Of a stretch of DNA of 64,000 nucleotides, positions 204 to 53,365 are shown in pieces. The notes beneath the pieces were generated by a model. It did no database searches and had not been told where the DNA came from. It worked only from the letters and a program-made list of their open reading frames with translations. The stretch comes from a virus: IMG/VR virus record IMGVR_UViG_3300037149_000105, positions 83,411 to 147,410 of that record; one strand, written 5' to 3'. Each line of letters opens with the position of its first letter. The stretch's first letter is position 1. Position numbers and translations under genes: made by a program.

Positions 204-881
204 ATGATAGCTAATGTTTTATGGGGAATTACCCCTACAGAATTTAAAAAATTAGTTGCTAGTTCTTCTTCTTTTGCAGGTATTCTGCGTTATTTCAAAC
301 TTGCGGATAGCAAGGCTAATCGAAGAGCACTCTACATGCGAATGGGTGAATTGCAATGCAATATTTCCCATTTCACCCTTCGGAAAAGGGTAAAATCACC
401 ATCTTTACCAAACTTCGAAATTTTTTGTGAGCATTCGCCTCTTAGTCGAAAGAATGTAAAAATGAGAATACTTCGTGATAACTTGCTTCCTTATGTTTGT
501 AAATGTGGAAACTCAGGCAATTGGGAAGGAAAAAAGCTCGTGCTCCAACTAGAGCATAAAAATGGAATAGGGGACGATAATCGTCTTAATAATTTGGAAT
601 TCATATGTCCTAATTGCCATAGTCAAACTGCCACATTTGCAGGAAGACAAAATGCCCTAAATAACCCCCCCGTTCATAACCATCATGAGCGATGGAATCA
701 ACGAAAATTAAAATGGCCCACAAAAGAAGAACTAGAGTATCTTGTTTGGAGTAAGCCAACAACTGAGTTAGCCAAAGAGTTCGAAGTTAGTGACTCAGCA
801 ATCAGTAGGTGGTGCCGCTGCTACTCCATTAAAAAACCCGGACGAGGGTATTGGACAGCGAAAAAACCCATCTCTCCGTAG
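204..881 (+). CDS. HNH homing endonuclease with C-terminal HTH
   Basis: CKC...LQLEHKNG..DNRLNNLEFICPNCHSQT; C-terminal TTELAKEFEVSDSAISRWC HTH; low GC. Confidence 0.9.
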   Translation: MIANVLWGITPTEFKKLVASSSSFAGILRYFKLADSKANRRALYMRMGELQCNISHFTLRKRVKSPSLPNFEIFCEHSPLSRKNVKMRILRDNLLPYVCKCGNSGNWEGKKLVLQLEHKNGIGDDNRLNNLEFICPNCHSQTATFAGRQNALNNPPVHNHHERWNQRKLKWPTKEELEYLVWSKPTTELAKEFEVSDSAISRWCRCYSIKKPGRGYWTAKKPISP

Positions 882-948
882 ATTAACTGGACAAATCACT
901 GGTCTCCGAAACCAGAGAGTGCCAATTCGAGTTTGGTCGGAGAGACCA
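872..948 (+). tRNA. tRNA-Arg(CCG)
   Basis: acceptor CTCTCCG/CGGAGAG-A-CCA; anticodon arm CTGGT-CTCCGAA-ACCAG; T arm GCCAA-TTCGAGT-TTGGT. Confidence 0.9.
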
Positions 949-1012
949 TCTGACATTCATCTACCAAGTGTAGAAGGAAATCGGGAGGCGCTATGCGACT
1001 CCTCGTAAAATT

Positions 1013-1108
1013 TAGACATGTGCAGCAATCAAAAACCTCGTATGCAGACATGGCTTCGTGCCCCTGCAAAAAAGTTTCGGCGTTCTGTAAAAACGTCAAA
1101 CGTGTCTA
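1013..1108 (+). ncRNA. unassigned CAGCAA-stem RNA with tRNA-Tyr-like anticodon hairpin
   Basis: 9-bp terminal stem TAGACATGT/ACGTGTCTA, GCAGCAATC, hairpin GGCGTT-CTGTAAA-AACGTC; related copy at 11425-11474. Confidence 0.55.
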
Positions 1109-1150
1109 GCTTTTTAAAACTTCCGTTTCCTCTTTTGAATGGAGGGTAAC

Positions 1151-1495
1151 ATGCTTAGTGATGCTATTGATGATCATCAGAATATTCGAGACAGATTGGT
1201 CAAGTTCATAAGTAAAGAGCCCTTCAATGCTATGGACTTGTTCTCCGTTCGAAGAGACTATAACTGTGATCTGGGCTCCTGGCTTTGGAAGCATCGAAAT
1301 GCGGAAATAGCCGACAAAAAAGAGTATCAGGAACTCGTGGGGATTCATCATAATTTTCATGAGATTGCTTATAAAGCTCTAATGCTGGGATCTGATAATA
1401 AACCAGAAGAGGCTTTCGCGGTTTTGGTTGGCCCCTACGCAGTAATAGAGAAGCAACTGATCGAAGCTATCGTCAACCTTGGAGATGTCGAATGA
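1151..1495 (+). CDS. stand-alone CZB (chemoreceptor zinc-binding) domain protein
   Basis: DDH...DYNCDLGSWL...YQELVGIHHNFH gives the His/Cys/His/His CZB pattern; GGAGG RBS before ATG 1151. Confidence 0.75.
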   Translation: MLSDAIDDHQNIRDRLVKFISKEPFNAMDLFSVRRDYNCDLGSWLWKHRNAEIADKKEYQELVGIHHNFHEIAYKALMLGSDNKPEEAFAVLVGPYAVIEKQLIEAIVNLGDVE

Positions 1496-2076
1496 AGAAA
1501 CAAATGCATTATTCCCTTGGCCTCTACCCTCTGCGGAGTAGTGGCTATCGGGCTTTCGTCGGCTTCCGCCCCGTGTGGAGGTTCTGGGGCCATTGGATCA
1601 ACCCACAGACCTATTGGAGAGCCGTCAAATACTTCTGTCAGCGTGGCTACAGGGGATACGCAGATTGCGATCACTGGGACATGGATAGCTACCTCGAAAA
1701 CGTGATGTTGGGTCTGTTCCGCGATCTCAAGAAGCATACGCAAGGCTACCCAAGCGGTATGGGTGATCGGATCATTGACACGGAAGGAACTGATACTGGT
1801 TTCGAAAAATGGCAGGCTACCCTCACCGAGATCATTGAAGGTCTGGAAGCTTCCCAGGAACTCAAAGATGAGTTTACGGTTCCGGAGGGAACCTATAGCA
1901 AGGAGCCTATCTATTGGGAGCCGGTCGAGGGCCATGAGGATTGCTTTCGAATGAAGGAAACTGAGACTCCTCGTTTCAATAAGGAGCTTCACGATCAATG
2001 GTCTGCTCCGTTGAAAAGGAAGTGCCTGAGAGCTAAGACTTTAATGGCTCGTTATTGGGGTTGCTTCTGGGACTAA
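1492..2076 (+). CDS. hypothetical phage protein
   Basis: 194-aa ORF, ATGA overlap with upstream gene. Confidence 0.8.
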   Translation: MKKQMHYSLGLYPLRSSGYRAFVGFRPVWRFWGHWINPQTYWRAVKYFCQRGYRGYADCDHWDMDSYLENVMLGLFRDLKKHTQGYPSGMGDRIIDTEGTDTGFEKWQATLTEIIEGLEASQELKDEFTVPEGTYSKEPIYWEPVEGHEDCFRMKETETPRFNKELHDQWSAPLKRKCLRAKTLMARYWGCFWD

Positions 2077-2081
2077 AAACA

Positions 2082-2166
2082 CCCCGAATGGCGGAAGTGG
2101 CGAGACGCGCGAGACTTAAAATCTCGCATCCGTAAGGGTATGAGGGTTCGAATCCCTCTTCGGGGA
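2082..2166 (+). tRNA. tRNA-Leu(TAA), no encoded CCA
   Basis: CCCCGAA/TTCGGGG-A acceptor; CGAGA-CTTAAAA-TCTCG anticodon arm; long variable arm; GGTTCGAATCC T arm. Confidence 0.92.
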
Positions 2167-2790
2167 CAGGTGATGCCTAATAGCATTATCAGACACTCCT
2201 AATTCTCTGGCTAACACAGAAAAGTTGGAAGTAGCAAGACGCGCAAGTAGTTCTTCATGCGAAGGCCACTCTATTTTTGTCGGTTGTGGTTTTATAGACT
2301 TCTTTTCTTTAGGAGGGGAGGGTGACTTTGAGATATTTTTACCTCGATAGGTATCAGTTTGTGCATGGCAATTAGGGCAAATTACTCTAAGATTACTTAG
2401 GGTATTATCCATATGATTACCATTGATATGGTCCAATTCTAGGGGGATCGAGAGCTTGTTCCATTTAACTAACCCACATATACCACATTGTTTTATGAAT
2501 ACCCCCTCTGAAAAGAGCTTTTGTTTCAGTTTTGCTGATTGAATAGGGAAGCGGTTGTTTAAATAATCATCCAGGTCTCGTCTTGGCGGGAGTTTCACCC
2601 CTTTGCTCCAGCTTTTCCCCACAAAGTGCTTAGTGCTAACTGGCCATTTTTTGAGCGTTTGATAAAATTGCCGGTAGTTTCCTCCCTCAGCAACAATGTT
2701 GAGTTTGGTTAACACCTCCCGCACACAAGTGGAGCCTAACACTGCTTCTTTGAAAATTTCCTCAGTATAAGTTCGTTCAATCCGTTTCAT
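2116..2790 (-). CDS. HNH homing endonuclease (paralog of 204..881)
   Basis: CGIC...LELDHINGNHMDNTLSNLRVICPNCHAQT; C-terminal KIEWPS.EEL..HTH. Confidence 0.9.
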   Translation of the reverse strand: MKRIERTYTEEIFKEAVLGSTCVREVLTKLNIVAEGGNYRQFYQTLKKWPVSTKHFVGKSWSKGVKLPPRRDLDDYLNNRFPIQSAKLKQKLFSEGVFIKQCGICGLVKWNKLSIPLELDHINGNHMDNTLSNLRVICPNCHAQTDTYRGKNISKSPSPPKEKKSIKPQPTKIEWPSHEELLARLATSNFSVLARELGVSDNAIRHHLSPKRDSNPHTLTDARF

Positions 2791-2830
2791 TGGCAGCCTC
2801 TAAAGAAGGGCTGCATATTCCATTTCCTCC

Positions 2831-2918
2831 GGAAGATCGGTGTAGTTGGAGGGGCACACTAGTCTTGAAAACTAGGGTCCGAAAGGGCCAGCGGGTTCGA
2901 ATCCCACATCTTCCGCCA
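2831..2918 (+). tRNA. tRNA-Ser(TGA)
   Basis: GGAAGAT/ATCTTCC-G-CCA; CTAGT-CTTGAAA-ACTAG; long variable arm. Confidence 0.92.
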
Positions 2919-2919
2919 T

Positions 2920-2993
2920 GCCAATGTAGTTCAGTGGTAGAACCCGAGCCTTGTAAACTCGCCACGACAGTTCGATTCTGTCCCTTGGCTCCA
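2920..2993 (+). tRNA. tRNA-Thr(TGT)
   Basis: GCCAATG/CCTTGGC-T-CCA; D arm GTTCAGTGGTAGAAC; loop CTTGTAA. Confidence 0.88.
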
Positions 2994-3056
2994 ACACCCC
3001 CTTTCTCTGCTTTACCCTTACCTGATAGCAGAGCAGGTTCGCCTTAAGGAGGCAAT

Positions 3057-3968
3057 GTGATTATGCACAACAACAACACCGTAGTATCCCTTTACGCCCT
3101 GAATGGTAGCCGAAAGACCCCGCTCAGAGAATACGATCACAAGCGTGGGGTTCTTGAATCTGAAGTTAGGGTTCCATTGAAATTTGATTCTGAGTATGGA
3201 ATCGGTTTCAAGTTTCAGGACATCGGTCGTCGTCGCCTTGAACTCTGGATTGACGGAGCGATGGTGACGGACAATCTCATTCTCGATGGAGAGAGCTTCC
3301 TGGAGCGATTCATGGATTCTGACAAGAGATTCCGTTTCGTTGAAGCAAGCAATGCTGCCGTGGCTGATCCGACCAGTCCCTCCAATGGGGGAGTCATGGT
3401 GAAGCTATGGCGTGAACAGCCTGATCTCCAGATGTTCAAACTGGCCCCGGATTACGGCAAGCAGTGGCCGCAGCCCCCAGTAGCCCCTTGGCAGCCCTGG
3501 ACTCCTCCAGTAGTGTGGGGCCGCTCTGATTGCCCAGGAGATCCTTCGCGGTCCTTGGATGTCATGTGTGGGGGCGCTACGTCATCTTCCTCACCCTCCG
3601 GTCCTCAAGGTCCGGTTGGTCAGCAAGGAGCCGTTGGAGTGCGAGGAATTGGGTATGGTGACAACATCGGAGAGTGTAATCTCTTCTGTTCATCCGCTCA
3701 GTCTCCCAGCCTCGCTGATGGATTCTGTTCGACGGAGATGTCCAACCTATCCCTCTTCGATAAGCTGAAGGGAGCGACAGTTGAAGGATCCACCTCCAAG
3801 CAGACCTTCAATGATACGGTTTGGCTGGGTGACTTTGGTAGCCCCTTGGTTTTCAAGTTCCAGCTTCACGGAATCGAAGAAGCCACACCGGGCAATTTCT
3901 GCCCAGGTTGTGGGATTAAACGCAAGAATCCCACTAACTTCTGCCCCAATTGTGGAGCAAAGCAATAG
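3057..3968 (+). CDS. hypothetical protein with short Gly-X-Y stretch and C-terminal zinc ribbon
   Basis: AAGGAGG RBS; GPQGPVGQQGAVGVRG; CPGC...CPNC. Confidence 0.85.
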   Translation: MIMHNNNTVVSLYALNGSRKTPLREYDHKRGVLESEVRVPLKFDSEYGIGFKFQDIGRRRLELWIDGAMVTDNLILDGESFLERFMDSDKRFRFVEASNAAVADPTSPSNGGVMVKLWREQPDLQMFKLAPDYGKQWPQPPVAPWQPWTPPVVWGRSDCPGDPSRSLDVMCGGATSSSSPSGPQGPVGQQGAVGVRGIGYGDNIGECNLFCSSAQSPSLADGFCSTEMSNLSLFDKLKGATVEGSTSKQTFNDTVWLGDFGSPLVFKFQLHGIEEATPGNFCPGCGIKRKNPTNFCPNCGAKQ

Positions 3969-3978
3969 TGGACCGAAC

Positions 3979-4050
3979 CTTCAAAGTTACCCCACCCTAT
4001 GGTGGGTATCCCTACTGCTTCCATGGTTCAGCATAGGGCACTCTTTGAAG
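3979..4050 (+). ncRNA. putative three-way-junction RNA
   Basis: CTTCAAAG/CTTTGAAG closing stem enclosing CCACC-CTAT-GGTGG and CCCTA..TGCT/AGCA-TAGGG hairpins. Confidence 0.4.
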
Positions 4051-4052
4051 TA

Positions 4053-4122
4053 GCATGGGGACTATAATCCCGGTGGTAAAGCCTCCACAAGGGGCCTGGA
4101 CGGTTCGACTCCGCCCCATGCG
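4053..4122 (+). ncRNA. tRNA-like RNA with non-canonical D and anticodon arms
   Basis: GCATGG/CCATGC terminal stem plus GGTTCGACTCC T arm; GCCTC-CACAA-GGGGC hairpin with 5-nt loop. Confidence 0.5.
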
Positions 4123-4128
4123 ATTAAT

Positions 4129-4218
4129 GGAAGTGTAAGCAAAGCAGGCAAGCTAGACTGTCTCGAAAACAGTTGGCCGATTTTCGGCCTAGGCGTTCGA
4201 CCCGCCTCACTTCCGCCA
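4129..4218 (+). tRNA. tRNA-Ser(CGA)
   Basis: GGAAGTG/CACTTCC-G-CCA; ACTGT-CTCGAAA-ACAGT; variable arm GGCCGA-TTT-TCGGCC. Confidence 0.9.
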
Positions 4219-4226
4219 TCATATTT

Positions 4227-4256
4227 GTGTGAGTCTTTAAAATAGACTAATGTCAA
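4227..4256 (+). repeat. 30-nt bulged-hairpin motif, copy 1 (degenerate)
   Basis: GTGT-GA-GTCTT-TAAAA-TAGAC-TAATG-TCAA. Confidence 0.6.
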
Positions 4257-4259
4257 ACT

Positions 4260-4335
4260 TGGACTGTAACTTCAGAGGCAGAAGGCTGCTTTTACACGGC
4301 AGAGGTCGAGATTTCGAAATTCTCCAGTCCAACCA
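4260..4335 (+). tRNA. tRNA-Val(TAC)
   Basis: TGGACTG/CAGTCCA-A-CCA; CTGCT-TTTACAC-GGCAG. Confidence 0.88.
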
Positions 4336-4378
4336 ATCCTCATCTTTCCGAACTACCGAGTATTATCATTGTAGGACA

Positions 4379-4408
4379 GTGTGAGTCTGAAACCCAGACT
4401 GACGACAC
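4379..4408 (+). repeat. 30-nt bulged-hairpin motif, copy 2
   Basis: GTGT-GA-GTCTG-AAACC-CAGAC-TGACG-ACAC. Confidence 0.7.
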
Positions 4409-4425
4409 ACACACACACACACACA
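4405..4425. repeat. (AC)10 dinucleotide microsatellite
   Basis: ACACACACACACACACACACA. Confidence 0.95.
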
Positions 4426-4480
4426 GGAAGCAGTTCATTGAAAATGGTCTCAGCAGTCCGACACACGCTTAGGCCACCAA

Positions 4481-4580
4481 GGGGAGAACGAGATTAGCTC
4501 ATGGAGAGCATCGGTTCTTTAGGCGTAGGGGATACCCTCACCACCGTGTGAAACGTTCGATTCGACTTCTCAGACTCCCC
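4481..4580 (+). ncRNA. tRNA-like RNA with extended acceptor stem and expanded anticodon loop
   Basis: GGGGAG/CTCCCC outer stem; TAGCTCATGGAGAGCA D arm; CGGT/ACCG stem enclosing AGGG-GATA-CCCT; GTTCGATTC T loop. Confidence 0.5.
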
Positions 4581-4601
4581 GATTATATGCCACAGTAGTA
4601 A

Positions 4602-4631
4602 GTGTGGGCCTACAAAATAGGCTAATGACAC
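4602..4631 (+). repeat. 30-nt bulged-hairpin motif, copy 3
   Basis: GTGT-GG-GCCTA-CAAAA-TAGGC-TAATG-ACAC. Confidence 0.75.
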
Positions 4632-4639
4632 GGTTAAGA

Positions 4640-4982
4640 GGTCTGAGTCGGTCACTGCCTTAGCCGGGGAACCGGATCCAGGTTCCCCGGATTTATACAA
4701 ATCGTTGAAGCCCCTCAAGGTCCTTGGGGCTCCGATATGGCGGCAACCAGATGAATGGTTGACAAAAGCAAGAGGCCGCTCTTCAAGGCAGAGCGAGTTC
4801 AGTTACGGCAACAACGGAGTCGATTCTCCATAGCGGGCTACCGCAAATCGCTTTGAAAGACTGAGCCCCCCGGCTCTCCGAAGACAGGAATCGTGAAACG
4901 GAGAGTGGAAGAAGTCCGAACCACTGGGGAGGAAAAGTTGCCGATGTGGGTAAGGTACGAAAGTATTGAATCCCACCCACCA
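4640..4982 (+). ncRNA. large multibranched structured RNA, family unassigned
   Basis: no credible ORF; many nested helices (see findings); ends in CCACCA, followed by an 11-bp hairpin at 4988-5016. Confidence 0.6.
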
Positions 4983-5034
4983 TGCACACGCCCCTGAACC
5001 AAACCTTCAGGGGCGTTCCATTTCAGGAGAGAAA

Positions 5035-5757
5035 ATGTTTGAGCCAAAAAAACTGAGTCCAGCGGAATTGTGCTTATGCCAGAACACCATCAGCCCCAAT
5101 ACATTCTACATGTTGGTTGGGGATGCGCTGGTATCTGGTAAACCCCTCTCGGTAGTTCGAATGGGGGATGGGGAACGAGCCCTCTATGACTACTGTCTGG
5201 GGAAACAGCTACCCAATATCATGGATGCGGATTGGATGCAACGACTCGGAGCCGATGGTATCGCAACGGATGAACTCCGGTATCGCCTGATTCGTGCCGC
5301 CACCCACTGCACCCACTTCGCTCCTTCCATTTCAGGAATTCAATTGGACAGTTTCGAACTCTACTCCCTATTCCCAGCCCGAGCCCGTTACGTTGATAAC
5401 TTTTTTGTCAACGCCTGGACGGAGGAGATGAAGATTCAACTTTTCAAAACTGCTGGCCATGTTCTCTTTATCCATCGGAACACTTCCACCGCAGATGCGA
5501 TGCAGATCAGAGCCAAATGGGGTCTAGGAGTCAAGGTGACCTATCTGAAGCTAGCTAGTTGGCGGGATTCGGAGTCAGTGATTGAGAAGGCCAAGAGCAT
5601 AGATGCTCCGCTAGTGCTGTTCAGTGCTGGTCCCGCTAGCAAATACATCGGTCCTGAAATTTCAACGAGTGGTTTGATTCCTCGTGTCACTTTGGATATC
5701 GGCAATGTGGCAGACTATTGGACCCTCACGAGTCTGAAAGATGTTCAAAGAATTTAA
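5035..5757 (+). CDS. GT-D fold-like glycosyltransferase domain protein
   Basis: LSVVRMGDGE near N-terminus and LFSAGPASK...TLDIGN near C-terminus; AGGAG RBS before ATG 5035. Confidence 0.6.
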   Translation: MFEPKKLSPAELCLCQNTISPNTFYMLVGDALVSGKPLSVVRMGDGERALYDYCLGKQLPNIMDADWMQRLGADGIATDELRYRLIRAATHCTHFAPSISGIQLDSFELYSLFPARARYVDNFFVNAWTEEMKIQLFKTAGHVLFIHRNTSTADAMQIRAKWGLGVKVTYLKLASWRDSESVIEKAKSIDAPLVLFSAGPASKYIGPEISTSGLIPRVTLDIGNVADYWTLTSLKDVQRI

Positions 5758-5763
5758 AAAATT

Positions 5764-5794
5764 GTATACGGATTTGCCAAAACTATGGTATAAT
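5764..5794 (+). promoter_or_regulatory. early-type promoter (GTATAC-N19-TATAAT)
   Basis: TGG-TATAAT -10 box; same layout as the other copies. Confidence 0.65.
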
Positions 5795-5805
5795 ATAGGT
5801 GTAGG

Positions 5806-6045
5806 GCAGATCATTGACAAGAAGCTCCAACGACGAGAGAACACAGAGGTAAGCCTCGTCGCTGTAGGGTTTGCAATCTAGCTTGGGGCATCGAAAGATG
5901 CGAACTTGATTCTTCGGAATCAACGGCACAACACAGGATGTGTTTCACCAAGCTTTATGTCGAGATTAGGGAAGCGCACCCAGAACGCTTCTTAACCAAA
6001 GTCCCGATACCACCCCAGTTGCATCCTCCACCTTCTAATGACTGC
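5806..6045 (+). ncRNA. stand-alone ~240-nt multibranched RNA
   Basis: between promoter 5764-5794 and terminator 6051-6077; paired ends; GAAA and C(TTCG)G tetraloop hairpins; no ORF. Confidence 0.65.
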
Positions 6046-6050
6046 GACAA

Positions 6051-6077
6051 GAGCCCCGAAAGGGGCTCAAGTTTTTT
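6051..6077 (+). terminator. intrinsic terminator
   Basis: GAGCCCC-GAAA-GGGGCTC followed by T6, between convergent units. Confidence 0.75.
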
Positions 6078-6675
6078 AATTTTCCAGTAAATCCGGATGA
6101 GTTTTTGTTAATCTGAGGTAGGCAGCGTGTTGTACAGGCCCTCCGTTAAACGCCGACACAACACTGGATGGGTTTCGCGCCTCTAAAATCACACGCCAGC
6201 CATCCCAACTGGCTATTCGTTTACCCCCAGAATCCTCAACTTTGCTGCAATGAGACAGCACTAGGGGTATCATGCGAAGCATATCAACCCCGGAGGAGAG
6301 TGGGTTCTCCTCCCCTGGGAACGCCTCAGCGTAAAGTTGCCTCAGTCTATCCCTCTTAGTCACAGTGTGATGCAACCCCATTCGCTCATCCCCCTTAATG
6401 AAATCTATCCAATCAGGAATGCTACCTATGTAGGTGGCTCCAAGCACATCGAGTCCGGTCTCCAAGTACTTGCTCATCGCTTCTTGACCCATTGTTAACC
6501 GATCACCCACATGAGTCTCTATTAGCTTCGGAGGGGTTCCAGGACCAGCCTTAATCTCTATTAATTTCCCATTTTTTATTCTTCGCCAATGAGCCCGATG
6601 ACCCATCAGGACCACATCCCTAGCGGATGCTTCTTTTAGCAATCTGGCTGCAAACTTGAATTTGAACCTGAACAT
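6076..6675 (-). CDS. putative BECR-fold (PBECR-like) ribonuclease domain protein
   Basis: GDERMGLHHTVTKR...IPLVL...RVIL....VVSAF resembles polyvalent-protein BECR nuclease domains. Confidence 0.4.
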   Translation of the reverse strand: MFRFKFKFAARLLKEASARDVVLMGHRAHWRRIKNGKLIEIKAGPGTPPKLIETHVGDRLTMGQEAMSKYLETGLDVLGATYIGSIPDWIDFIKGDERMGLHHTVTKRDRLRQLYAEAFPGEENPLSSGVDMLRMIPLVLSHCSKVEDSGGKRIASWDGWRVILEARNPSSVVSAFNGGPVQHAAYLRLTKTHPDLLEN

Positions 6676-6714
6676 CGTCGCCTCAACAAAGAGTTGCAGA
6701 TTCTGAAAATTTTT

Positions 6715-11529: not shown

Positions 11530-12966
11530 GTGTCCAACCTGCTTAACGCCATCACCCGCACTCAGAACTACACCCGTACCGAGAATGGTGCGCTGACGCA
11601 TCAGTCCACGCTGGACGGTGTGCTTGACTTCTATTACCACGCTCCCGCTCGTCGGGGTCAGGACAACACTGCCCTCTTCTTGAAGGCATTTGGCGAGGAC
11701 CGTCTGACGGCCATCCGCTGCCTTTTCTACATCCGTGACATCCGTGGGGGTCAGGGGGAGCGTGAGACCTTCCGTCAGGGTCTGCGCGAACTGTACAAGA
11801 ACTTCCGTGAGGTGTTCGACCACATCCTCTCCTATGTGCCGGTCTACGGTCGTTGGGACGACATCGTGGAGTACGTCTCCGATCAGAAGGTCGTGTCGGT
11901 CATCCATGAGCAGCTAAACCTGGATCTCGGATCCGAAGAGGGTGTGAGCCTCCTGGCGAAGTGGATGCCCTCCATCAACACCTCTTCCAAGGAGACGGTC
12001 GCCCTGGCGCACCGATGGGTGAAGGCTCTGGGTTGGACTCCCGTCCAGTACCGCAAGAATCTCTCTACCCTCCGTGGCCGCATCAAGCTGGTCGAGACCG
12101 CCATGTCCCAGAACCAGTGGGACTCCATCTCTTACGGCCAGATTCCATCCCGTGCGGGTCTGCTCTACAAGGATGCGTTCAAGCGTCATGATGGTGCTCG
12201 TTACGACGAGTTCCTGGCGGCGGTTGTGCGGGGTGAGGAGAAAATCAACTCCGGCACCCTCTACCCCTACGAACTGGTGGCCAAGTCCATCGGCCAGAAG
12301 GACCAGACCGCCGAGGCGATGTGGAAGTGCCTGCCGAACTATGCGGATACCGACGACAACGCTCTGGTTGTCGCAGATGTTTCGGGCTCGATGTGTGGGG
12401 CTCGTGGGCCAAGCAACATCGCCCCGATCACCGTGTGCATCAGCCTCGCCATCTATCTGGCTGAGCGGAACAAGGGGATCTTCCACAACAAGTTCATCAC
12501 CTTCAGTGAGACCCCGGCTGTCCAGTCTCTCAAGGGGGACACCCTCTACGAGAAGGTCAGCAACCTCTCCAGGGCAACCTGGGGCATGAACACCAATCTC
12601 CAGTCGGTGTTCAATGTCGTTCTGTCCACGGCGGTCAAGGCGAAGCTCCCGGCCAGCGAAATGCCGACCAAGATTTTCATCATCTCCGACATGGAGTTTG
12701 ACTCTTGCGTGACGAACAACACCAACCTGGAAGTGATCAAGGCGAAGTATGCGGCCTCCGGCTACACGCTCCCAACCATCATCTTCTGGAACGTGGATTC
12801 CCGCAACGATCAGACCCCGGTCACGATGGATGAGAAGGGCACGTATCTGGTCTCCGGATGCAGCCCCAGCATCTTCGAAAAGGCCATCAAGGCTCAGGCG
12901 TGTAGTCCCATCGAAATGTGTTTGGAGGTTTTGAACGGACCTCGCTACGAGCCGATCACTCTGTGA
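11530..12966 (+). CDS. DUF2828-type TROVE/Ro60-like protein with C-terminal vWA
   Basis: TENGA, RDIRGGQGER, GRWDD, LAKWMP, TLYPYE, VADVSGSM, WGMNTN, ISDMEFD, IIFWNV. Confidence 0.85.
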   Translation: MSNLLNAITRTQNYTRTENGALTHQSTLDGVLDFYYHAPARRGQDNTALFLKAFGEDRLTAIRCLFYIRDIRGGQGERETFRQGLRELYKNFREVFDHILSYVPVYGRWDDIVEYVSDQKVVSVIHEQLNLDLGSEEGVSLLAKWMPSINTSSKETVALAHRWVKALGWTPVQYRKNLSTLRGRIKLVETAMSQNQWDSISYGQIPSRAGLLYKDAFKRHDGARYDEFLAAVVRGEEKINSGTLYPYELVAKSIGQKDQTAEAMWKCLPNYADTDDNALVVADVSGSMCGARGPSNIAPITVCISLAIYLAERNKGIFHNKFITFSETPAVQSLKGDTLYEKVSNLSRATWGMNTNLQSVFNVVLSTAVKAKLPASEMPTKIFIISDMEFDSCVTNNTNLEVIKAKYAASGYTLPTIIFWNVDSRNDQTPVTMDEKGTYLVSGCSPSIFEKAIKAQACSPIEMCLEVLNGPRYEPITL

Positions 12967-25062: not shown

Positions 25063-28000
25063 TTACGTTGTTCTGATAAGACGTTTCTGCCTTACTGGAG
25101 TGGGATAGACGTTTAGCTCATCCTCTATTTCGTGAAGACGGTCGTCAATCTGGTTCCACCGTTCCACGAGTTTCTCGTACTCCTCTGACCATTTTATAGA
25201 GTCCCCCTCCTGAGCATTTTCTTCTAGGGCTTGGTCTACCACTTGCTGCTCTTTGGTTAGCTGTTCCTTTTCATCCATCAGAGGGGCAAACTCAGTCTCT
25301 TTTTCGTCAAACAACAGCCCCTGAGCCGCATCCATTTTCTCAACATGGAGGTCCATATCAGGATATAGCTTTTGGAGATACTTGAGCATCTCGTGACCCA
25401 CATACTCTCTTGGATCCACAGCTTTGCGTAACCGCTCGGACATCAGTTTCCTGGCCTCTAGAGTAGTCAGAGCTTGGTTTCCAATGTCGATGCTATCAAT
25501 CCACGGGTAGCCCTCATAGATGGAATAACGAATCTCTCCCACACAGAATCTTCCGTTGAGGGCGAACAGTGTGAAGTAATCCTGGGCAAACCGGCGGTGG
25601 TGGTGCTCATGTTTGAACGTCAACGCTCCAATCTTTATCAGCAAAGAGGAGTTTATTTTGCTCGCAGTTGTTCGGGAAGCTCCGCCTCCAATTCCGGTGG
25701 GAGTAATGCCCCCGGCTTGTGATCCGGGTATGCCATCCCCAGATACGCCTCTCTTGTAAGAGGAATCTTGTGAGTCTGCATGAAGCATAGGATCGGATCC
25801 GACCCAGCTTGGGGTTTCGAAGACGTTTTTTCCGCCCCTTCGTTCTTTGATAACAGCGGTGATTTTTTCCCTAGCTTGTTCGGCATTGAGCCCTCCATCT
25901 TCTGGATCGTGTGAGGCCCAGATCTCATTTGCAATACGGATGAACTTCTTGTCTCGCTTGTCCGCAGGGCTGAAAAGTGCCCTCACGGCCTCCCAGGTGA
26001 TTGACTGGAGTTCGCGGGGTAGGATGCCCACCGCAGGGTCTTTCGCGGCTCTACGGTATGCCTCAGCGTAAAGAGCATAGAGTCCGTTCAGACCTGTGAT
26101 TGAACTATTACTCGGACCTGGAATCTTCTCCATATCGGGGTCACCCTCGACATATTCGCCCTCATCATCATCCCATACCCACACCTTGCCATTTTTGTCT
26201 TTCTTAGGGTTGAAACCGGTGCCAAAGTTATGAGCGACTTCTACCGCCGCACCACTCAGCGGGCGAATCAGTGCCGCCGCAACCGCATGGGTATCAATCG
26301 TTACATCACCCTCATCAGCCATTGGGGCGATAAGATTGTTGTAGAATGACCGCACCTTATGATTCGTTCCAACCAATTTAGATACATCACTGACCGATTC
26401 TGATTCAAGGATTCGGACAGCCTTGGAGATGGCGGCGAAGCTGTTCCAGCGAACCTTAGCATTCTGTTTCCCAGTTTTGAACCAATCTCCAAAATTCCCT
26501 TCCGGAGTGACTTCACGAAGCTTGTTATCCGTATGTCCTTCGGCCCAAGCCCTGATCCATACGGAAGCCAAATACTCTCGACCTGATTCAGGGGTATTTT
26601 CTGTTAGCACTTCGTTGAGAGTTTTACCACGAAGCAGAGGAATGGCCAACGCTGTAGACCACTTCAGCTTGGGCTCCTTGGTTTTCTTGGGTTTCCTGGC
26701 ACTTTCCTTTTTCTTCTTGCCACCCTCCTCTGACTCTCCGGCCCTAACCGCTTCCTTCATGTCATCTTCCAGGTCATCCGGGGTCCAGTTGCGATGCAGG
26801 GCCACCCGATCCATCTTCCAATCCCAGCGGAAGTCTTTCAACTCTACCAACGCTTCAATGATACGTTCTGCGGTGGTGACGTTCTGGAACCAGTGAGCCT
26901 GGGGGGACATCGCCGCCACCACAGCCGCCACCTTGTGTGGCTCCAGATGGAACTTCTCCGCCCACCTGTGAATGATGCGATTGCCTCCCACGTACCATAA
27001 TTTAGCCCTATCCGCTAGGGATTTATCCCAAGTCTTATACAGCCAGATGAGGTTTGCAGCCATGTGGTTGATGATCTCTTCAGCCTTTTCATGAGCATCA
27101 AACTTCTGGAAACGGCCCTCTCGCATATATTTAAAGTTGGGGTAGTTATCTACCGCTAGGTTGACATTATACTCAAACTTCTCATTCTCCATCATCTTCT
27201 GAAGGTCCGGTTGGCTAGTAGCGTGACTGTGGGGGTCAACCTCACCGGGCTTCAGCACACTGCTTTGGGCGGCTGGACTGATGCGCCTATCCGCCAGTGA
27301 CTTGGCTAAGTCCTCTTCCTCTTGAGTCGGAGGAGTAACCTTTTCAGCGTTTGGTGTCTCCTCATTCACCATCCCCTCCACGGGGTCTACGTTTAACCCA
27401 CCACCTTCGGTTCGGGGCTTCACTGAAGCGGTAAGCAAAGGGCTGGAGGGGTTGAATGTCCCCTTGTTTCCTATGGCTGATTTTACTTGACGGGGATTCC
27501 ATACGATGTAATGGCGAGTGCCAGGGGCCATTCTCATGTTTAGAAATTGAGCACTCGCATCCATGATAATCCCATCGAACCCCATGTAGCGGTAGATAGC
27601 AGAGATAAGAGCGCCTGCACCTCCTTGAGCACCCGCACTTTCATCATTTCCTCTTACAGCTTTTTCAAATTCATAAGCAGAGCAGCCCTCTAACAACTTC
27701 TCCACCAATTCTTCCCATATGCGGTCTGCTCGTATGTCTGACTCTGAGCAAGCAGCCTGTACCGCCTCATAGAGTTTGGTAACTTCAGGGCCATCTACCC
27801 ACTCATCTTCATTCTCCGGGTCAGGGCCACCATCCCCACCCAAGTAGGTTCCGCCTTTTGGTGTTACGATGACTGGGTTTTCCATTTTCAAGTAAGTGAG
27901 GTAGACGGCCCCCTGATGAGTCCCACCTAACATTTCCCATGCTTTTTTCTTGGCAAGCTCTCGGATAGCTTTGGGGTTGTCTTCGTGCTCTTCCCCCATC

Positions 28001-31000
28001 TCTTCTTCCCAATCTCCCCCATCACTCATCAAGTCTTCTGCAACCTCATCAATTTTTCCAGCCAAATCTCGGCAATTGATATCTGCATACTGACTCGCAT
28101 CCACTTCACAATCGGTAAAATATATCCCCTTGCTATACCAGCCATCCGTGTATGCGTTACTCATAGAGAATTGGTCAAATTCATTGGTGGTTCCGTGCAT
28201 GACTCGTTTTGGGGTTCCGTCCTTATTGACAACTTTGGAATCACCGAACCACGCCTTAAATTGCGGAGTCTCATGCGGCTTGGGTCTTTTTGCAAGTTCT
28301 CTTCCAATTTGTTGAGCGGCTTCATTTACAGCCTGCTGGGCCGACATCGCTTTCTTGACCCTTCCGATTTTTGAGATAGCCCCAACCAGCCGCTCTGTAG
28401 CTTCATTGCGGCTCGTCACACCGGTCATATCGGTGTTCTTGATTGCCGCCGCACAACTCAGCAGGTAGGATTTGGACTCCTGGTTAGCCCCATAGAGCGC
28501 ACAGTCCAACAACTGGGAGAAGTCAAACGCCCCCCTGGACCCAGACTGAATGATGTTTACTACCGCATCTTTTGGCAAAGACTTGGCTTGCCGGATATTT
28601 TCCCGGTTCTTTTTAACAAACTGAGCCGCTTGTTTGATTTGGTTGGACAGGCCCAGCCGGTTGTTCAGACTATCCGGAACGGGAAGCAGAGACTCAATCC
28701 CCACCATCTGCATATCAAAATCCCAACCATTCTGATGACCATAATTGACTGATTTAGCTATACTGTCCCAATTCTGCTCGAATTCACTAAACCAGGGTTC
28801 TAGGCACCCACCCTCACGTAGCACTTCAAAGAACCGCATCGGAACCTTGCCGACAAGCGCACGTTTGGTCTCTTCTCGGATACGATCAGCCGGGAGGTAT
28901 TGTAGTTCTGGCTGCATCCGCCGCATCATTTCTACCAGTTGGGGGCTCACCTTCCACTCAGACCCAAATTGGGCACTGAAACGAGCCGCCCTATATACCC
29001 TTAATGCATCCTCAGCAAACTTCTCACTGACGTTCTGGAGGGTCTTATCCTTGATATTTTGCAGTGCTTCAGGAGGTCCGAACAGCTTGCCGTCCGCATC
29101 CACCGACATGGCGTTCACGTTTAGGTCCCGGCGAACCATGTCGTCTTCGAAGTTGCCGGTTGGAGTAACATCAAAATCTTTGTGACCCACCCCATTTTTT
29201 TCTTCGGAACGGGCCACCGCGATTTCAATTTGGCCATAGGTTGGATCTTGGTAAAGGTAGACAGGGAAAGCCTTCCCCACATTCTCCAGACCCATTTGCT
29301 GCAACGTTTCTGCCGTTGTGTTGGTAACCACATCAAAGTCCTTTGGCTTACGGTCAAGTAGCATGTCTCTGACGCAACCACCAACAAAACGGAAGTCAGC
29401 CCTGGGGTCAAACATGTAAGCCATCTGCTTGAGCTTCTTCAGCATATATAGGGGTAGCTTGACCTCCTGGTCATGAGGAAGCTGAACCATCGCAGCCTGC
29501 TTGGAGGCAACTGTCATCCCCTGGTACCGCCAGACTTCACCTGGGTTCTTCATGTTTAGAAGCTCCCCAATTGGAATCCCTGCGTATTTTCTGCCACCTT
29601 CGTATTGCTCAATGTAAACCTCATCCTTCATTTGGGTCAAGTCAGACTCCTCCAGTCCACTCTCATTAAATACCCAATCGATGATGGTGTCAAGATTTCT
29701 TGGAGTGAGTCGCCACACTTCAAAGTTTTTGTCTACAACCCGGATTTGGTTGTAAAATCGCATGAAGAACTCTCGGACTTCGTTCTTGAACATGTCATAC
29801 TCGCCATTAAAAATGGCATCACACTCTTCCAGAGACACATAACCCCAGATGAGGGTAAAGAACACATCTTCCACTGGAAAGTCAGGCTCCCCATACTTCA
29901 TCGCATGGAGCTTTCGCCACTCTTCCTCCACCTCTCCTGGGTTGTTGTCATCTTCTTCTTCGTGGGCCTCATGAAGATGACGCTGACAAGCACTAAGAAT
30001 TTGGTCCCACTTGTCATTGAGAATCTGTTCTCTGGCATAGGTTTCGTGGGTATAGTCCCCGTCTCCACTGCATTCTGCATAGTTGTTCGCTGAGTCGCCA
30101 TCTACCCAGTATTCACCATTGATGAAACTACCCCACCCTGCGGCAAGTTTGCTGCTGTAGTGTTGTCGGGCCACCTCTTCATCAAGTCCGTAGTCTACCA
30201 AGACCGGATACCGCTCACCCCTACGTTCGACCAGCCCCCACTGGCTCTCTCGATCAATGTCCCACCATTTAACACCAAGTGTCTGGCATAAGAACTGAAG
30301 AGATTTCACTGCCTGCCTATCTGTAAGAAATTCTGTTCCCCCACGCTCTACTTTTTTACAAAAGTTGTAGGCGTTGGTTGCTCCATATCGTTCGAAATCT
30401 GAATAGGTGGCCCCTCTTAGGACTCGCTCAACTACGAGCCAGTGAAACTCAGTATCATAGTAAAAAATGCGAGTGATAATAGTGCAATCCTCAACCTTCT
30501 CATACATTCTGAGTTCGGCTTTGTTCTGAGCCACACCGGGCTGATTGATCGCTAGCTTGATTGCAACATGTTCATTTACCCCGACGACCATACGGGAAGA
30601 CCCTTCCCCTAAAACTGGAAGCTCCATTCCGGTTCGCTCTCTCAGGAGCTTTAAGCGATCCCTGACGGTCTGAGAGTAGCCATTAGGCTCCTCCCAATTG
30701 TTATCCCCCTCCCCTTCATCCTGACCTTCTGGTGATATTTCGTGAATGCCGGGAAGTTTTTTGAGCAGATCCTTTGGGATATTTTTAGGCTTCTCTTCAG
30801 CCACTTTGACTTGATCGGCGTCCTGTTCCCCAAAGATGTCAATCAATGCAGTTAAAAGTTCCCTAGGTACTTCAGAGCCATCGGCCCATTTGGTCAGTCC
30901 CTTATTGGTTACACGACTAACGCCTCGTGGAAGCCCATTGCGGTCGTATAGGATGACGAACAAAGGGCCTGGGGTGCTCTTGTAGATGGTCTGCTTGTAG

Positions 31001-31629
31001 CGGTCGATTATCTTACGAGCGTCATTTAATTCCTGTTTATCTCGTTTCTGCACTGGTTTGCCCAGGTCCACCATCATACGCTTATTTGTGTCCGGTGCTC
31101 TCCAAACAGATTTGGAGATGCCCTCTTCCCGTCCTGCATGACGTTCTAAGAACTCTTCATCACTGACGTTATCATCATAAAGCCTGCTCCATGCACCAGA
31201 GTCTTCACTGGCCGTCTTCTGATTGACAATTCGCTCATGAACTATATCGTAGAATTGCTGGCTCAAAGGGAACAGGATTTCATAACCGTACATCAATTCA
31301 GTTCCGTAGAAGTCGATCTCGGTCTGCTTGATAGCCTGCATCATCGCCTTGATGACCCCCGCATCCTCTCCGAACTCAGTCTCGGATAAGAAAGCCTTGA
31401 TTTGTTCTAGGATAAGTGCAGTCCCTTCATGAAATACAATCTGGGTGTGTCCTGGGTTGTCCAAAGGGATAGGGAGTTCTAGCATGAATACTGAAAATCG
31501 AGGAATACCCAAGTCAATCAGCCACTGGATTCGGGGCCGCTCATCTCGGATGAAATAGATATTAATGACACCCTGCTCAGGTAGGACAAATGCTCTCTTC
31601 ATGCTCACACTCTCAATATTGATACCCAT
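25063..31629 (-). CDS. polyvalent protein: kinase-like + CCA-adding tRNA nucleotidyltransferase + ART-like + HhH-like + GNAT-like modules
   Basis: GEGSSR/VAIK/LVDYG; VGGCVRD..KDFD, RRDLNVNAM, EDALRVYRAARF; FKAWFGDSK..MHGT..GIYFT..GFDGII..QVKSA; WY..SPQ..KVRSFY..VTIDTH..LQSITW. Confidence 0.88.
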   Translation of the reverse strand: MGINIESVSMKRAFVLPEQGVINIYFIRDERPRIQWLIDLGIPRFSVFMLELPIPLDNPGHTQIVFHEGTALILEQIKAFLSETEFGEDAGVIKAMMQAIKQTEIDFYGTELMYGYEILFPLSQQFYDIVHERIVNQKTASEDSGAWSRLYDDNVSDEEFLERHAGREEGISKSVWRAPDTNKRMMVDLGKPVQKRDKQELNDARKIIDRYKQTIYKSTPGPLFVILYDRNGLPRGVSRVTNKGLTKWADGSEVPRELLTALIDIFGEQDADQVKVAEEKPKNIPKDLLKKLPGIHEISPEGQDEGEGDNNWEEPNGYSQTVRDRLKLLRERTGMELPVLGEGSSRMVVGVNEHVAIKLAINQPGVAQNKAELRMYEKVEDCTIITRIFYYDTEFHWLVVERVLRGATYSDFERYGATNAYNFCKKVERGGTEFLTDRQAVKSLQFLCQTLGVKWWDIDRESQWGLVERRGERYPVLVDYGLDEEVARQHYSSKLAAGWGSFINGEYWVDGDSANNYAECSGDGDYTHETYAREQILNDKWDQILSACQRHLHEAHEEEDDNNPGEVEEEWRKLHAMKYGEPDFPVEDVFFTLIWGYVSLEECDAIFNGEYDMFKNEVREFFMRFYNQIRVVDKNFEVWRLTPRNLDTIIDWVFNESGLEESDLTQMKDEVYIEQYEGGRKYAGIPIGELLNMKNPGEVWRYQGMTVASKQAAMVQLPHDQEVKLPLYMLKKLKQMAYMFDPRADFRFVGGCVRDMLLDRKPKDFDVVTNTTAETLQQMGLENVGKAFPVYLYQDPTYGQIEIAVARSEEKNGVGHKDFDVTPTGNFEDDMVRRDLNVNAMSVDADGKLFGPPEALQNIKDKTLQNVSEKFAEDALRVYRAARFSAQFGSEWKVSPQLVEMMRRMQPELQYLPADRIREETKRALVGKVPMRFFEVLREGGCLEPWFSEFEQNWDSIAKSVNYGHQNGWDFDMQMVGIESLLPVPDSLNNRLGLSNQIKQAAQFVKKNRENIRQAKSLPKDAVVNIIQSGSRGAFDFSQLLDCALYGANQESKSYLLSCAAAIKNTDMTGVTSRNEATERLVGAISKIGRVKKAMSAQQAVNEAAQQIGRELAKRPKPHETPQFKAWFGDSKVVNKDGTPKRVMHGTTNEFDQFSMSNAYTDGWYSKGIYFTDCEVDASQYADINCRDLAGKIDEVAEDLMSDGGDWEEEMGEEHEDNPKAIRELAKKKAWEMLGGTHQGAVYLTYLKMENPVIVTPKGGTYLGGDGGPDPENEDEWVDGPEVTKLYEAVQAACSESDIRADRIWEELVEKLLEGCSAYEFEKAVRGNDESAGAQGGAGALISAIYRYMGFDGIIMDASAQFLNMRMAPGTRHYIVWNPRQVKSAIGNKGTFNPSSPLLTASVKPRTEGGGLNVDPVEGMVNEETPNAEKVTPPTQEEEDLAKSLADRRISPAAQSSVLKPGEVDPHSHATSQPDLQKMMENEKFEYNVNLAVDNYPNFKYMREGRFQKFDAHEKAEEIINHMAANLIWLYKTWDKSLADRAKLWYVGGNRIIHRWAEKFHLEPHKVAAVVAAMSPQAHWFQNVTTAERIIEALVELKDFRWDWKMDRVALHRNWTPDDLEDDMKEAVRAGESEEGGKKKKESARKPKKTKEPKLKWSTALAIPLLRGKTLNEVLTENTPESGREYLASVWIRAWAEGHTDNKLREVTPEGNFGDWFKTGKQNAKVRWNSFAAISKAVRILESESVSDVSKLVGTNHKVRSFYNNLIAPMADEGDVTIDTHAVAAALIRPLSGAAVEVAHNFGTGFNPKKDKNGKVWVWDDDEGEYVEGDPDMEKIPGPSNSSITGLNGLYALYAEAYRRAAKDPAVGILPRELQSITWEAVRALFSPADKRDKKFIRIANEIWASHDPEDGGLNAEQAREKITAVIKERRGGKNVFETPSWVGSDPMLHADSQDSSYKRGVSGDGIPGSQAGGITPTGIGGGASRTTASKINSSLLIKIGALTFKHEHHHRRFAQDYFTLFALNGRFCVGEIRYSIYEGYPWIDSIDIGNQALTTLEARKLMSERLRKAVDPREYVGHEMLKYLQKLYPDMDLHVEKMDAAQGLLFDEKETEFAPLMDEKEQLTKEQQVVDQALEENAQEGDSIKWSEEYEKLVERWNQIDDRLHEIEDELNVYPTPVRQKRLIRTT

Positions 31630-53334: not shown

Positions 53335-53365
53335 TGTTTCAAGTCCTCATAAGAGCGGTCGGTAT

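Follow-up and report, generated by a model that had tools for sequence, protein, structure and literature searches.

What does a large phage make from several hundred nucleotides of ornate, noncoding sequence placed at the end of its tRNA genes? The question is raised by a locus in a 64,000-nt stretch of virus DNA (positions 83,411 to 147,410 of IMG/VR record IMGVR_UViG_3300037149_000105), which we call the window and whose numbering is used throughout. The window covers the right end (64 kb) of a 147-kb record that is estimated to be 51% complete and that therefore belongs to a large phage genome. A sequence-only reading had proposed that positions 4640-4982 encode an ornate noncoding RNA (ncRNA) of ~340 nt whose 3' end is CCACCA. 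A discrete, expressed, and ornate ncRNA does indeed reside in this phage tRNA island, but the CCA is not its end because contigs of the RNA run to 4984 or 5019.

The abundant RNA occupies positions 4698-5019 of the + strand (320-322 nt), as judged from contig depth, homology limits, and the folding scores of the two strands; a shorter form, 4701-4984, was seen in one run. It accumulates 10- to >100-fold over its neighbors. With modest confidence, we favor the explanation that the locus is a new gene for an abundant structured ncRNA whose 5' end is formed by processing and whose two ends may be joined by a ligase to give a circle.

Abundance and limits of the RNA

Evidence for the RNA comes from metatranscriptome contigs of four peat or permafrost runs (four studies), placed on positions 4350-5250. 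Nineteen RNA runs were listed as holding parts of the stretch, contig placement confirmed four, and only those four were used. Three runs yielded high-depth contigs that cover most or all of the RNA: a linear contig for 4701-4984 in run X1 (412x), and contigs for 4698-5019 in X2 (341x) and 4700-5019 in X8 (203x). The permafrost run X12 gave two variant contigs over 4734-4887 (356x and 376x). The first is of the window type and the second, at near-equal depth, is of the type found in L013, which is one of two diverged relatives of the RNA introduced below. Therefore, two lineages were active in one sample. Across the four runs, contig depth is 203-732x for the abundant RNA and 3-26x for its flanks, with 2.6-26x over the upstream segment 4435-4694 and 0-3x over the downstream gene. 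Contamination with DNA would cover the region evenly, so these values reflect RNA.

Folding scores favor the + strand as the transcribed one, since its z-score is -3.77 compared with -2.20 for the - strand; G.U pairs and the presence of terminators on the + strand argue in the same direction. When positions 4640-4982 are folded alone, the minimum free energy has a z-score of -3.76, and none of 100 shuffled sequences was as stable.

The 5' limits of the RNA in three studies are 4698, 4700, and 4701, and the residues C4698 to A4701 lie 8-11 nt past an upstream hairpin. These contig limits agree with the limits of conservation, because homology among relatives starts at C4698 and stops at the terminator. 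Two diverged variants, each 85-86% identical to the window, are present in closely related phage DNA: L013, whose record is also that of L138 and L015, and L016, which comes from a peat metagenome. Homologous sequence in L013 starts at 4697/4698. Upstream of C4698 no conservation between the window and L013 was found, and L013 carries there an unrelated segment of ~80 nt and a different hairpin. This extra segment (L013:341-416) has its own G5/C5 hairpin and sits between the conserved upstream hairpin and the 5' end of the RNA, which means that the leader is not conserved.

The conserved upstream hairpin itself (4664-4690, + strand) has 10 bp, is followed by AUUUAUA, and appears to be the 3'-end hairpin of a separate, weaker RNA (~4435-4694). 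It thus marks a boundary and lies outside the abundant RNA. The hairpin is retained with compensatory changes in L016 and L013, and L016 keeps the window type. In run X2 the upstream contig stops at 4694 and then folds back over 4665-4694, which fits a hairpin-ended 3' terminus of the upstream RNA. Consequently, the limits 4640 and 4982 proposed initially are not the ends of a molecule, and the first 58 nt of that segment (4640-4697) belong to this weaker transcript.

A smaller, bulged hairpin of 30 nt (GUGU...ACAC) precedes the boundary at 4602-4633. Metatranscriptome contigs that match only this hairpin run into other sequence on both sides, and therefore other copies are transcribed too. 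One copy, 94% identical, precedes the TROVE-like gene of L138 (9214-9245). The same island also holds a (CA)n microsatellite of ~10 units (4405-4425), which was passed over as a repeat when contigs were placed.

How might the 5' end of the abundant RNA be formed? No sigma-70-like promoter was found upstream of it in the window, L013, or L016, and the word TATACA is not enriched as would be expected for a phage promoter (23 observed, 18 expected). Because no conserved promoter-like element lies upstream and one relative has an unrelated 80-nt leader, we infer that the end would be made by endonucleolytic processing of transcripts that read through the operon.

On its 3' side, the RNA extends to 5019 in two runs and to 4984 in another. 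A hairpin predicted to be an intrinsic terminator spans 4989-5015 (+ strand). The window copy has the tail GUUCCAUUU, the relatives have AUUUUUU, and the stem carries a compensatory change from U-A to C-G at 4995/5009. The U tract of the window's own copy is weak, and the element is not called as a terminator there. In L013 and L016 it scores as a textbook intrinsic terminator with 10 bp, of which eight are G-C, and AUUUUUU. Beyond this canonical terminator, both relatives have a separate promoter-like site ahead of the next gene. An RNA that has its own terminator, with a separate promoter-like site downstream, is its own unit and not a leader.

This arrangement bears on the proposal that the locus is a cis-acting leader, similar to a riboswitch or attenuator, whose terminator controls the downstream gene and whose terminated product is the abundant RNA. 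A large structured element does precede a terminator, a ribosome binding site and ATG (5035) follow 15 nt later in the window, and GCCCC and GGGGC segments at both ends of the RNA might pair in alternative ways. However, the gene downstream differs between the window and the relatives because a 1.7-kb insertion falls exactly after the terminator, the next gene in L013 and L016 has its own promoter-like site, homologs of the downstream GT-D-like gene occur in other phages without the RNA, and no riboswitch model matches. We therefore consider a leader function highly improbable.

Predicted fold and distribution of the family

The RNA is predicted to form a 5' hairpin, a long-range AUGGCGG/CCRCCAU helix enclosing three subdomains, and a 3' terminator hairpin. 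The same architecture emerges when each of the three variants is folded singly and in the RNAalifold consensus. In the predicted layout, a 5' tail (CAAAUC) leads into hairpin P1, a 7-bp long-range helix surrounds the inner elements, and a linker of 5 nt connects this helix to the terminator. All elements are on the + strand.

P1 (4704-4736) pairs GUUG with CGAU and AGCCCC with GGGGCU around an 11-nt loop. It appears in the consensus and in all single-sequence minimum free energy structures, and the sole change among variants is in its loop, at 4719. The 5' strand of the closing helix, AUGGCGG (4737-4743), pairs with CCACCAU (4977-4983). In the window this helix has one C.A mismatch, whereas L013 and L016 carry CCGCCAU and would form 7 perfect bp. 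Inside the closing helix, a CAACCA/UGGUUG hairpin (4744-4761) has an invariant stem and a single change in its loop, at 4752. It is followed by a CGCUCU/AGAGCG hairpin (4777-4795) whose 5' arm has an alternative upstream GAGCG-like partner that is longer in the homologs. Substitutions and two 1-nt insertions at 4764-4785 are confined to flanking or loop segments of this second hairpin.

Domain 2 (4806-4943) is a multibranch element closed by CGGCAAC/GUUGCCG (4806-4812/4937-4943), and is predicted from the individual folds, the consensus, and pairing-compatible changes. It contains hairpins at 4815-4830 (loop UCGAUU) and 4833-4844, a CCCCGG/CUGGGG helix, and a CUCUCCG/CGGAGAG hairpin with an 18-nt loop. 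The last inner element is a variable terminal arm, GUGGG/CCCAC (4946-4976), whose loop is 21, 11, and 13 nt long in the three variants. A GGUAC-GAAA-GUAUU hairpin insert is present in this arm only in the window lineage. Additionally, CGAUU at 4821-4825 and AAUCG at 4889-4893 are a candidate loop-loop contact that is invariant across the variants.

The sequence-only reading had anticipated much of this. The complementary segments it listed all exist, and folding 4640-4982 alone reproduces its picture. Domain 2 with its GGAG/CUCC, GCGG/CCGC, and CUCUCCG/CGGAGAG arms recurs in the folds of the two diverged homologs and in the RNAalifold consensus, as do the AGCCCC/GGGGCU hairpin and the GUGGG/CCCAC arm. 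The closure of its domain 1 (4643-4661 with 4785-4802) fared poorly. Its 5' strands precede the abundant RNA, whose start is at 4698-4701; the L013 sequence is unrelated there; and in a longer context the minimum free energy structure pairs 4640-4650 elsewhere. Moreover, the duplex between leader and RNA is no better than that formed by shuffled leaders, of which fractions of 0.81, 0.46, and 0.64 were at least as good in the three variants.

The pattern of substitutions also fits the predicted fold. On a structure computed from the window sequence only, and thus free of alignment bias, changes fall in 12 of 182 paired columns and 32 of 140 unpaired columns (Fisher p = 3e-5). Two double changes preserve a pair: U-A to C-G at 4995/5009 in the terminator, and G-C to A-U at 4950/4972 in the terminal arm. 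The latter change, of G4950-C4972 in L013, was read from the alignment at a place where MAFFT puts a gap. Other changes create pairs (C.A to G-C at 4815/4830 and C.A to C-G at 4741/4979) or are compatible with pairing (C-G to U.G at 4812/4937 and 4885/4895).

Several other functions for the segment were considered. Strings resembling an RNase P CR-I motif (GAAGUCC) and GUGAAACGG are present, but inspection by eye places them in the wrong order, with no P4 partner, and the Rfam models of RNase P, group I/II introns, and self-cleaving ribozymes gave no match at E<=10 over 4200-5100. The lone open reading frame preceded by a Shine-Dalgarno-like GGAGG begins with AUG at 4944 and would encode 17, 16, and 4 amino acids in the three variants, which differ by 1-nt and 8-10-nt indels. 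Because this frame is not conserved, a small-protein function was likewise dismissed. A search for homologs of a 68-amino-acid frame on the minus strand returned none, and candidate antisense targets in the phage genome were rejected (best E = 0.14).

By sequence comparison, the RNA belongs to a new family outside those described. Rfam cmscan with all 4227 families, at gathering score and at E<=10, reported only tRNAs in the window region and the two homologous loci. Over 4200-5100 at E<=10, GOLLD, ROOL, raiA, OLE, HEARO, RNase P, group I/II introns, riboswitches, and Y_RNA/Yrl were all unmatched; the gathering-score scan covered the full length of the window. ARAGORN, run on the region with relaxed thresholds and introns allowed and also on a head-to-tail dimer of the RNA, identified no credible tmRNA or tRNA.

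As far as can be judged from the searches made, the family is also confined to a narrow clade of large peat phages. Pattern scans revealed identical copies in L002 and L014. Exact and gapped scans of a viral collection recovered only the same phage and L013, and a single scan of metagenomes with a rather specific pattern returned one identical locus and two variants. Neither a covariance model of domain 2 nor an nhmmer profile detected a further copy in the phage's own genome or at 15 loci with TROVE genes. At four loci with homologs of the downstream GT-D-like gene (63-64% protein identity), neither alignment nor BLAST revealed a homologous RNA upstream. A 14-mer scan produced 119 loci, all of them chance matches by nhmmer. 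One of two pattern scans of prokaryote genome contigs had no match, and the other had a match inside a protein-coding gene of a Terriglobia metagenome-assembled genome (a K-K-S-E-G-P-K-P-G-E-E-K stretch), which is a chance match that gives no information on the host.

A head-to-tail joint and its explanation

Two of the contigs described above are closed on themselves. In X2 the sequence passes directly from 5019 to 4698, and in X8 from 5019 to 4700 (equally, from 5020 to 4701). The joint contigs, from two studies, measure 352 and 350 nt, as expected for cycles of 322 and 320 nt plus the 30 nt of k-1 at k = 31, with no inserted letters. In the DNA records (the window, L002, L014, L013, and L016) the RNA locus is single-copy and collinear. 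A circular RNA would leave such a closed-cycle signature, and so would rare head-to-tail cDNA chimeras of a very abundant RNA that close the assembly graph.

An enzyme that could make a circle is encoded in the same phage genome. The product of L152:832-2055 (about 53294-54517 of G000:C1, outside the window) has an N-terminal OB fold (PF21189/PHA02142) and a C-terminal RNA_ligase domain (PF09414, E = 1.4e-25). An HNH endonuclease gene directly follows the ligase gene. A search of the phage record for T4 Rnl1 (PF09511) had no match, but is uninformative because the control search also matched nowhere.

These observations can be combined into one route. Endonucleolytic cutting of the read-through transcript would leave a 5'-phosphate on the RNA, and the intrinsic terminator would provide a 3'-OH. 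These are the ends joined by the ligase chemistry, which suits a 5' end made by processing and a 3' end made by termination. They could then be sealed, probably by the phage ATP-dependent RNA ligase, into an exonuclease-resistant circle, which would account for the head-to-tail contigs and for the extreme abundance. We consider circularity of the 4698-5019 RNA to be a close call that falls slightly short of even.

A number of points weigh against this explanation. Contigs cannot establish the true ends, strand, or topology of an RNA, and for any small RNA of very high abundance, a rare template-switch chimera could be enough to complete a de Bruijn cycle. Between the two runs the joint shifts by 2 nt, and the third run has a linear contig (4701-4984). 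The ligase gene is ~34 kb from the RNA, and RtcB (PF01139) was not found in the 147-kb record, which covers about half of the genome. Regarding the fold, only three sequence variants exist, two of which are close to each other. RNAalifold counts one pair changed on both sides, with a covariation term of +0.45, so the fold is unproven by covariation. Finally, the domain 2 covariance model (R1) and the nhmmer profile found no homologue in 13 whole, more distant related phage records.

The strongest competing explanation is that the same abundant structured RNA is linear, shielded by its 5' hairpin and its 3' terminator hairpin, and that the joints are template switches by reverse transcriptase or closures made during assembly. 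In its favor, the position of the joint varies (4698, 4700, perhaps 4701), the X1 contig is linear (4701-4984), and the 3' end matches that expected from an ordinary terminator. Furthermore, unitig depth is averaged along the contig as a whole, which hides the depth at the joint. However, two libraries from different years and protocols gave clean closed cycles with no extra letters and only 0-1 nt of microhomology at the joint. In X2 no contig reads through 4694-4698 or 5019-5020, and therefore joint k-mers outcompeted read-through in that run. The phage also encodes a ligase of suitable chemistry. We judge a protected linear RNA to be a serious possibility, but not the probable one.

Genomic neighborhood and relation to known RNAs

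The RNA locus comes last in a series of tRNA genes on the + strand. ARAGORN places tRNAs at 872-4218, and Rfam adds one more at 4260-4332 (45.7 bits, E = 2e-8), which ARAGORN does not report by default but calls tRNA-Val(tac) with a relaxed threshold. A clean tRNA-Val(tac) occupies the matching relative position in L016. Thus, tRNAs span 872-4332 in the window, and they also adjoin the RNA in L016 and L138. Directly after the terminator and before the next promoter-like site, the window has a 1.7-kb insertion (5016-6709) that L138 and L016 lack. It comprises the GT-D-like gene, a second abundant RNA unit, and a gene at 6076-6675. The second RNA unit, ~750 nt downstream, has an extended -10 promoter near 5783-5791 and a strong terminator near 6050-6078. 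It resembles a primary transcript made from a promoter of the sigma-70 type, and a primary transcript with a 5'-triphosphate cannot serve a ligase directly. We looked for sequence similarity of this unit and of a repeated hairpin family to the 4698-5019 RNA and found none. Other than the backbone common to its closest relatives, the RNA has no constant gene partner.

A neighboring gene offers one candidate partner. The window encodes a TROVE-like (Ro60-like) protein at 11530-12966 that matches DUF2828, DUF7788, and phrog_850 'RNA-binding protein', and the RNA could be a Y-RNA-like molecule that tethers or gates it. In both RNA-bearing lineages the RNA lies 5-7 kb upstream of the TROVE-like gene, and TROVE-like genes adjoin tRNA islands in several distant phages. 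On the other hand, among the 13 related records, most of which have a TROVE-like gene, only the closest one carries the RNA. No Y_RNA or Yrl-type Rfam model matches, and the RNA has no long terminal stem of the Y type formed by its 5' and 3' ends. We regard this partnership as unlikely. As a separate observation, five distant phages (L140, L142, L147, L148, and L149; 34-51% identity) again have a TROVE-like gene (DUF2828/DUF7788, phrog_850) within a few kb of tRNA genes, and therefore the association of this protein with tRNA islands extends beyond the clade of the window phage.

More remote still is the original proposal that a ~340-nt RNA (4640-4982), ending in an interrupted T arm and CCACCA, is a tRNA- or tmRNA-like substrate of CCA-adding or aminoacylation enzymes. 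The relatives retain the CCA within CCGCCA, the contig of one run ends 2 nt past the CCA, at 4984, and a polyvalent protein of the phage has a nucleotidyltransferase domain of the PolyA_pol/CCA-adding type. However, the putative CCACCA end (4977-4982) is CCGCCA in both homologs and forms the 3' strand of the 7-bp helix with AUGGCGG 4737-4743. Its CCA pairs with UGG 4738-4740, and the helix is improved to a perfect one by the A-to-G change in the homologs. Similarly, the proposed T arm has a stem compensated by G-C to A-U, a loop of 21, 11, or 13 nt, and no T-loop motif (UUCRANY). Pairing of the 5' and 3' ends gives no acceptor stem, and the Rfam tRNA and tmRNA models and ARAGORN are negative. 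In two runs the RNA reaches 5019, and the abundant RNA lacks the initial 58 nt of the proposed molecule. These results already largely refute the tRNA-like proposal, to which we assign very little probability. The polyvalent protein (2188 amino acids, 25063-31629, - strand) combines a PolyA_pol head and RNA-binding domains of the CCA-adding/poly(A) polymerase family with ART-PolyVal (ADP-ribosyltransferase) and DUF7178.

Returning to the favored explanation of a processed and possibly ligated ncRNA, our best guess, made by analogy, is that the RNA acts during infection as a stable protein-binding scaffold or decoy, or that it assembles with itself as ROOL and GOLLD do. A broader proposal, which we offer tentatively, is that the phage encodes at least two ornate ncRNAs closed by its own ATP-dependent ligase. 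These would be dominant, exonuclease-proof transcripts in peat, and together with the Ro60-like protein and the tRNA island they may constitute a module for takeover or counter-defense. If this proposal is correct, it would reveal a protein-ligated circular ncRNA system of a kind not described for bacteriophages; our literature search for circular ncRNAs of phages returned only reviews of eukaryotic and synthetic circular RNAs.

The distinction between a circle and a line has consequences beyond this locus. If the joint reflects a true circle, then DNA phages make ligase-closed circular ncRNAs, and this would bear on surveys for viroid-like RNAs, which call circles by an identical contig signature. 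More generally, the large structured RNAs of phage tRNA islands, including GOLLD, ROOL, and the stable RNAs of T4, have been functionally unexplained for years. The new family is open to direct study: the ends of the RNA have been mapped, public metatranscriptomes of peat and permafrost contain it in extreme abundance, and another abundant RNA, unrelated to it, lies nearby. The same genome encodes an RNA ligase, a domain of the CCA-adding type, and a Ro60-like protein.

Among known systems, the tRNA cluster of phage T4 offers a close parallel. It yields 'species 1' and 'species 2', which are small stable RNAs of ~120-140 nt that are matured from operon transcripts and whose function is unexplained. 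By description, these RNAs and the window RNA are alike in being encoded among phage tRNA genes, although those of T4 are shorter. We know of no circular form described for either T4 species. Another partial resemblance is to tmRNA, which is of comparable size and shares the phage/tRNA context and a CCA-containing 3' region. The window RNA differs from it by having no acceptor stem, T loop, or tag frame, and by being negative with Rfam and with ARAGORN, including the permuted/dimer test. Bacterial Y RNAs, such as YrlA with Ro60 (Rsr), are likewise structured ncRNAs whose genes lie close to that of a Ro60/TROVE-type RNA-binding protein and, in some cases, to RNA ligase genes. In contrast, the window RNA has neither an Rfam match nor a Y-type terminal stem, and its co-occurrence with a TROVE-like gene is limited to the closest relatives.

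ROOL and GOLLD are phage RNAs that are found near tRNA islands and form RNA-only cages (PMC12286853). Like them, the window RNA is phage-encoded, multihelical, noncoding, without an explained function, and located in or beside a tRNA island. It is much smaller (320 nt vs. roughly 580 and >800 nt), lacks an Rfam match at E<=10, has a very narrow distribution, and exhibits the head-to-tail signal. For this last property the nearest precedents are archaeal ncRNAs that are circularized by an ATP-dependent RNA ligase, namely C/D-box sRNAs (PMC9014305) and circular omega-RNA isoforms (PMC12558985). In these systems the RNA's own ends are joined by a protein ligase, and the chemistry, with 5'-phosphate and 3'-OH ends, fits the phage ligase family. 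The precedents differ in being archaeal small RNAs acted on by Rnl3-type enzymes, whereas the candidate described here belongs to a bacterial-type DNA phage that encodes a ligase with an OB fold and an RNA_ligase domain, and its possible circularity is read from contigs alone.

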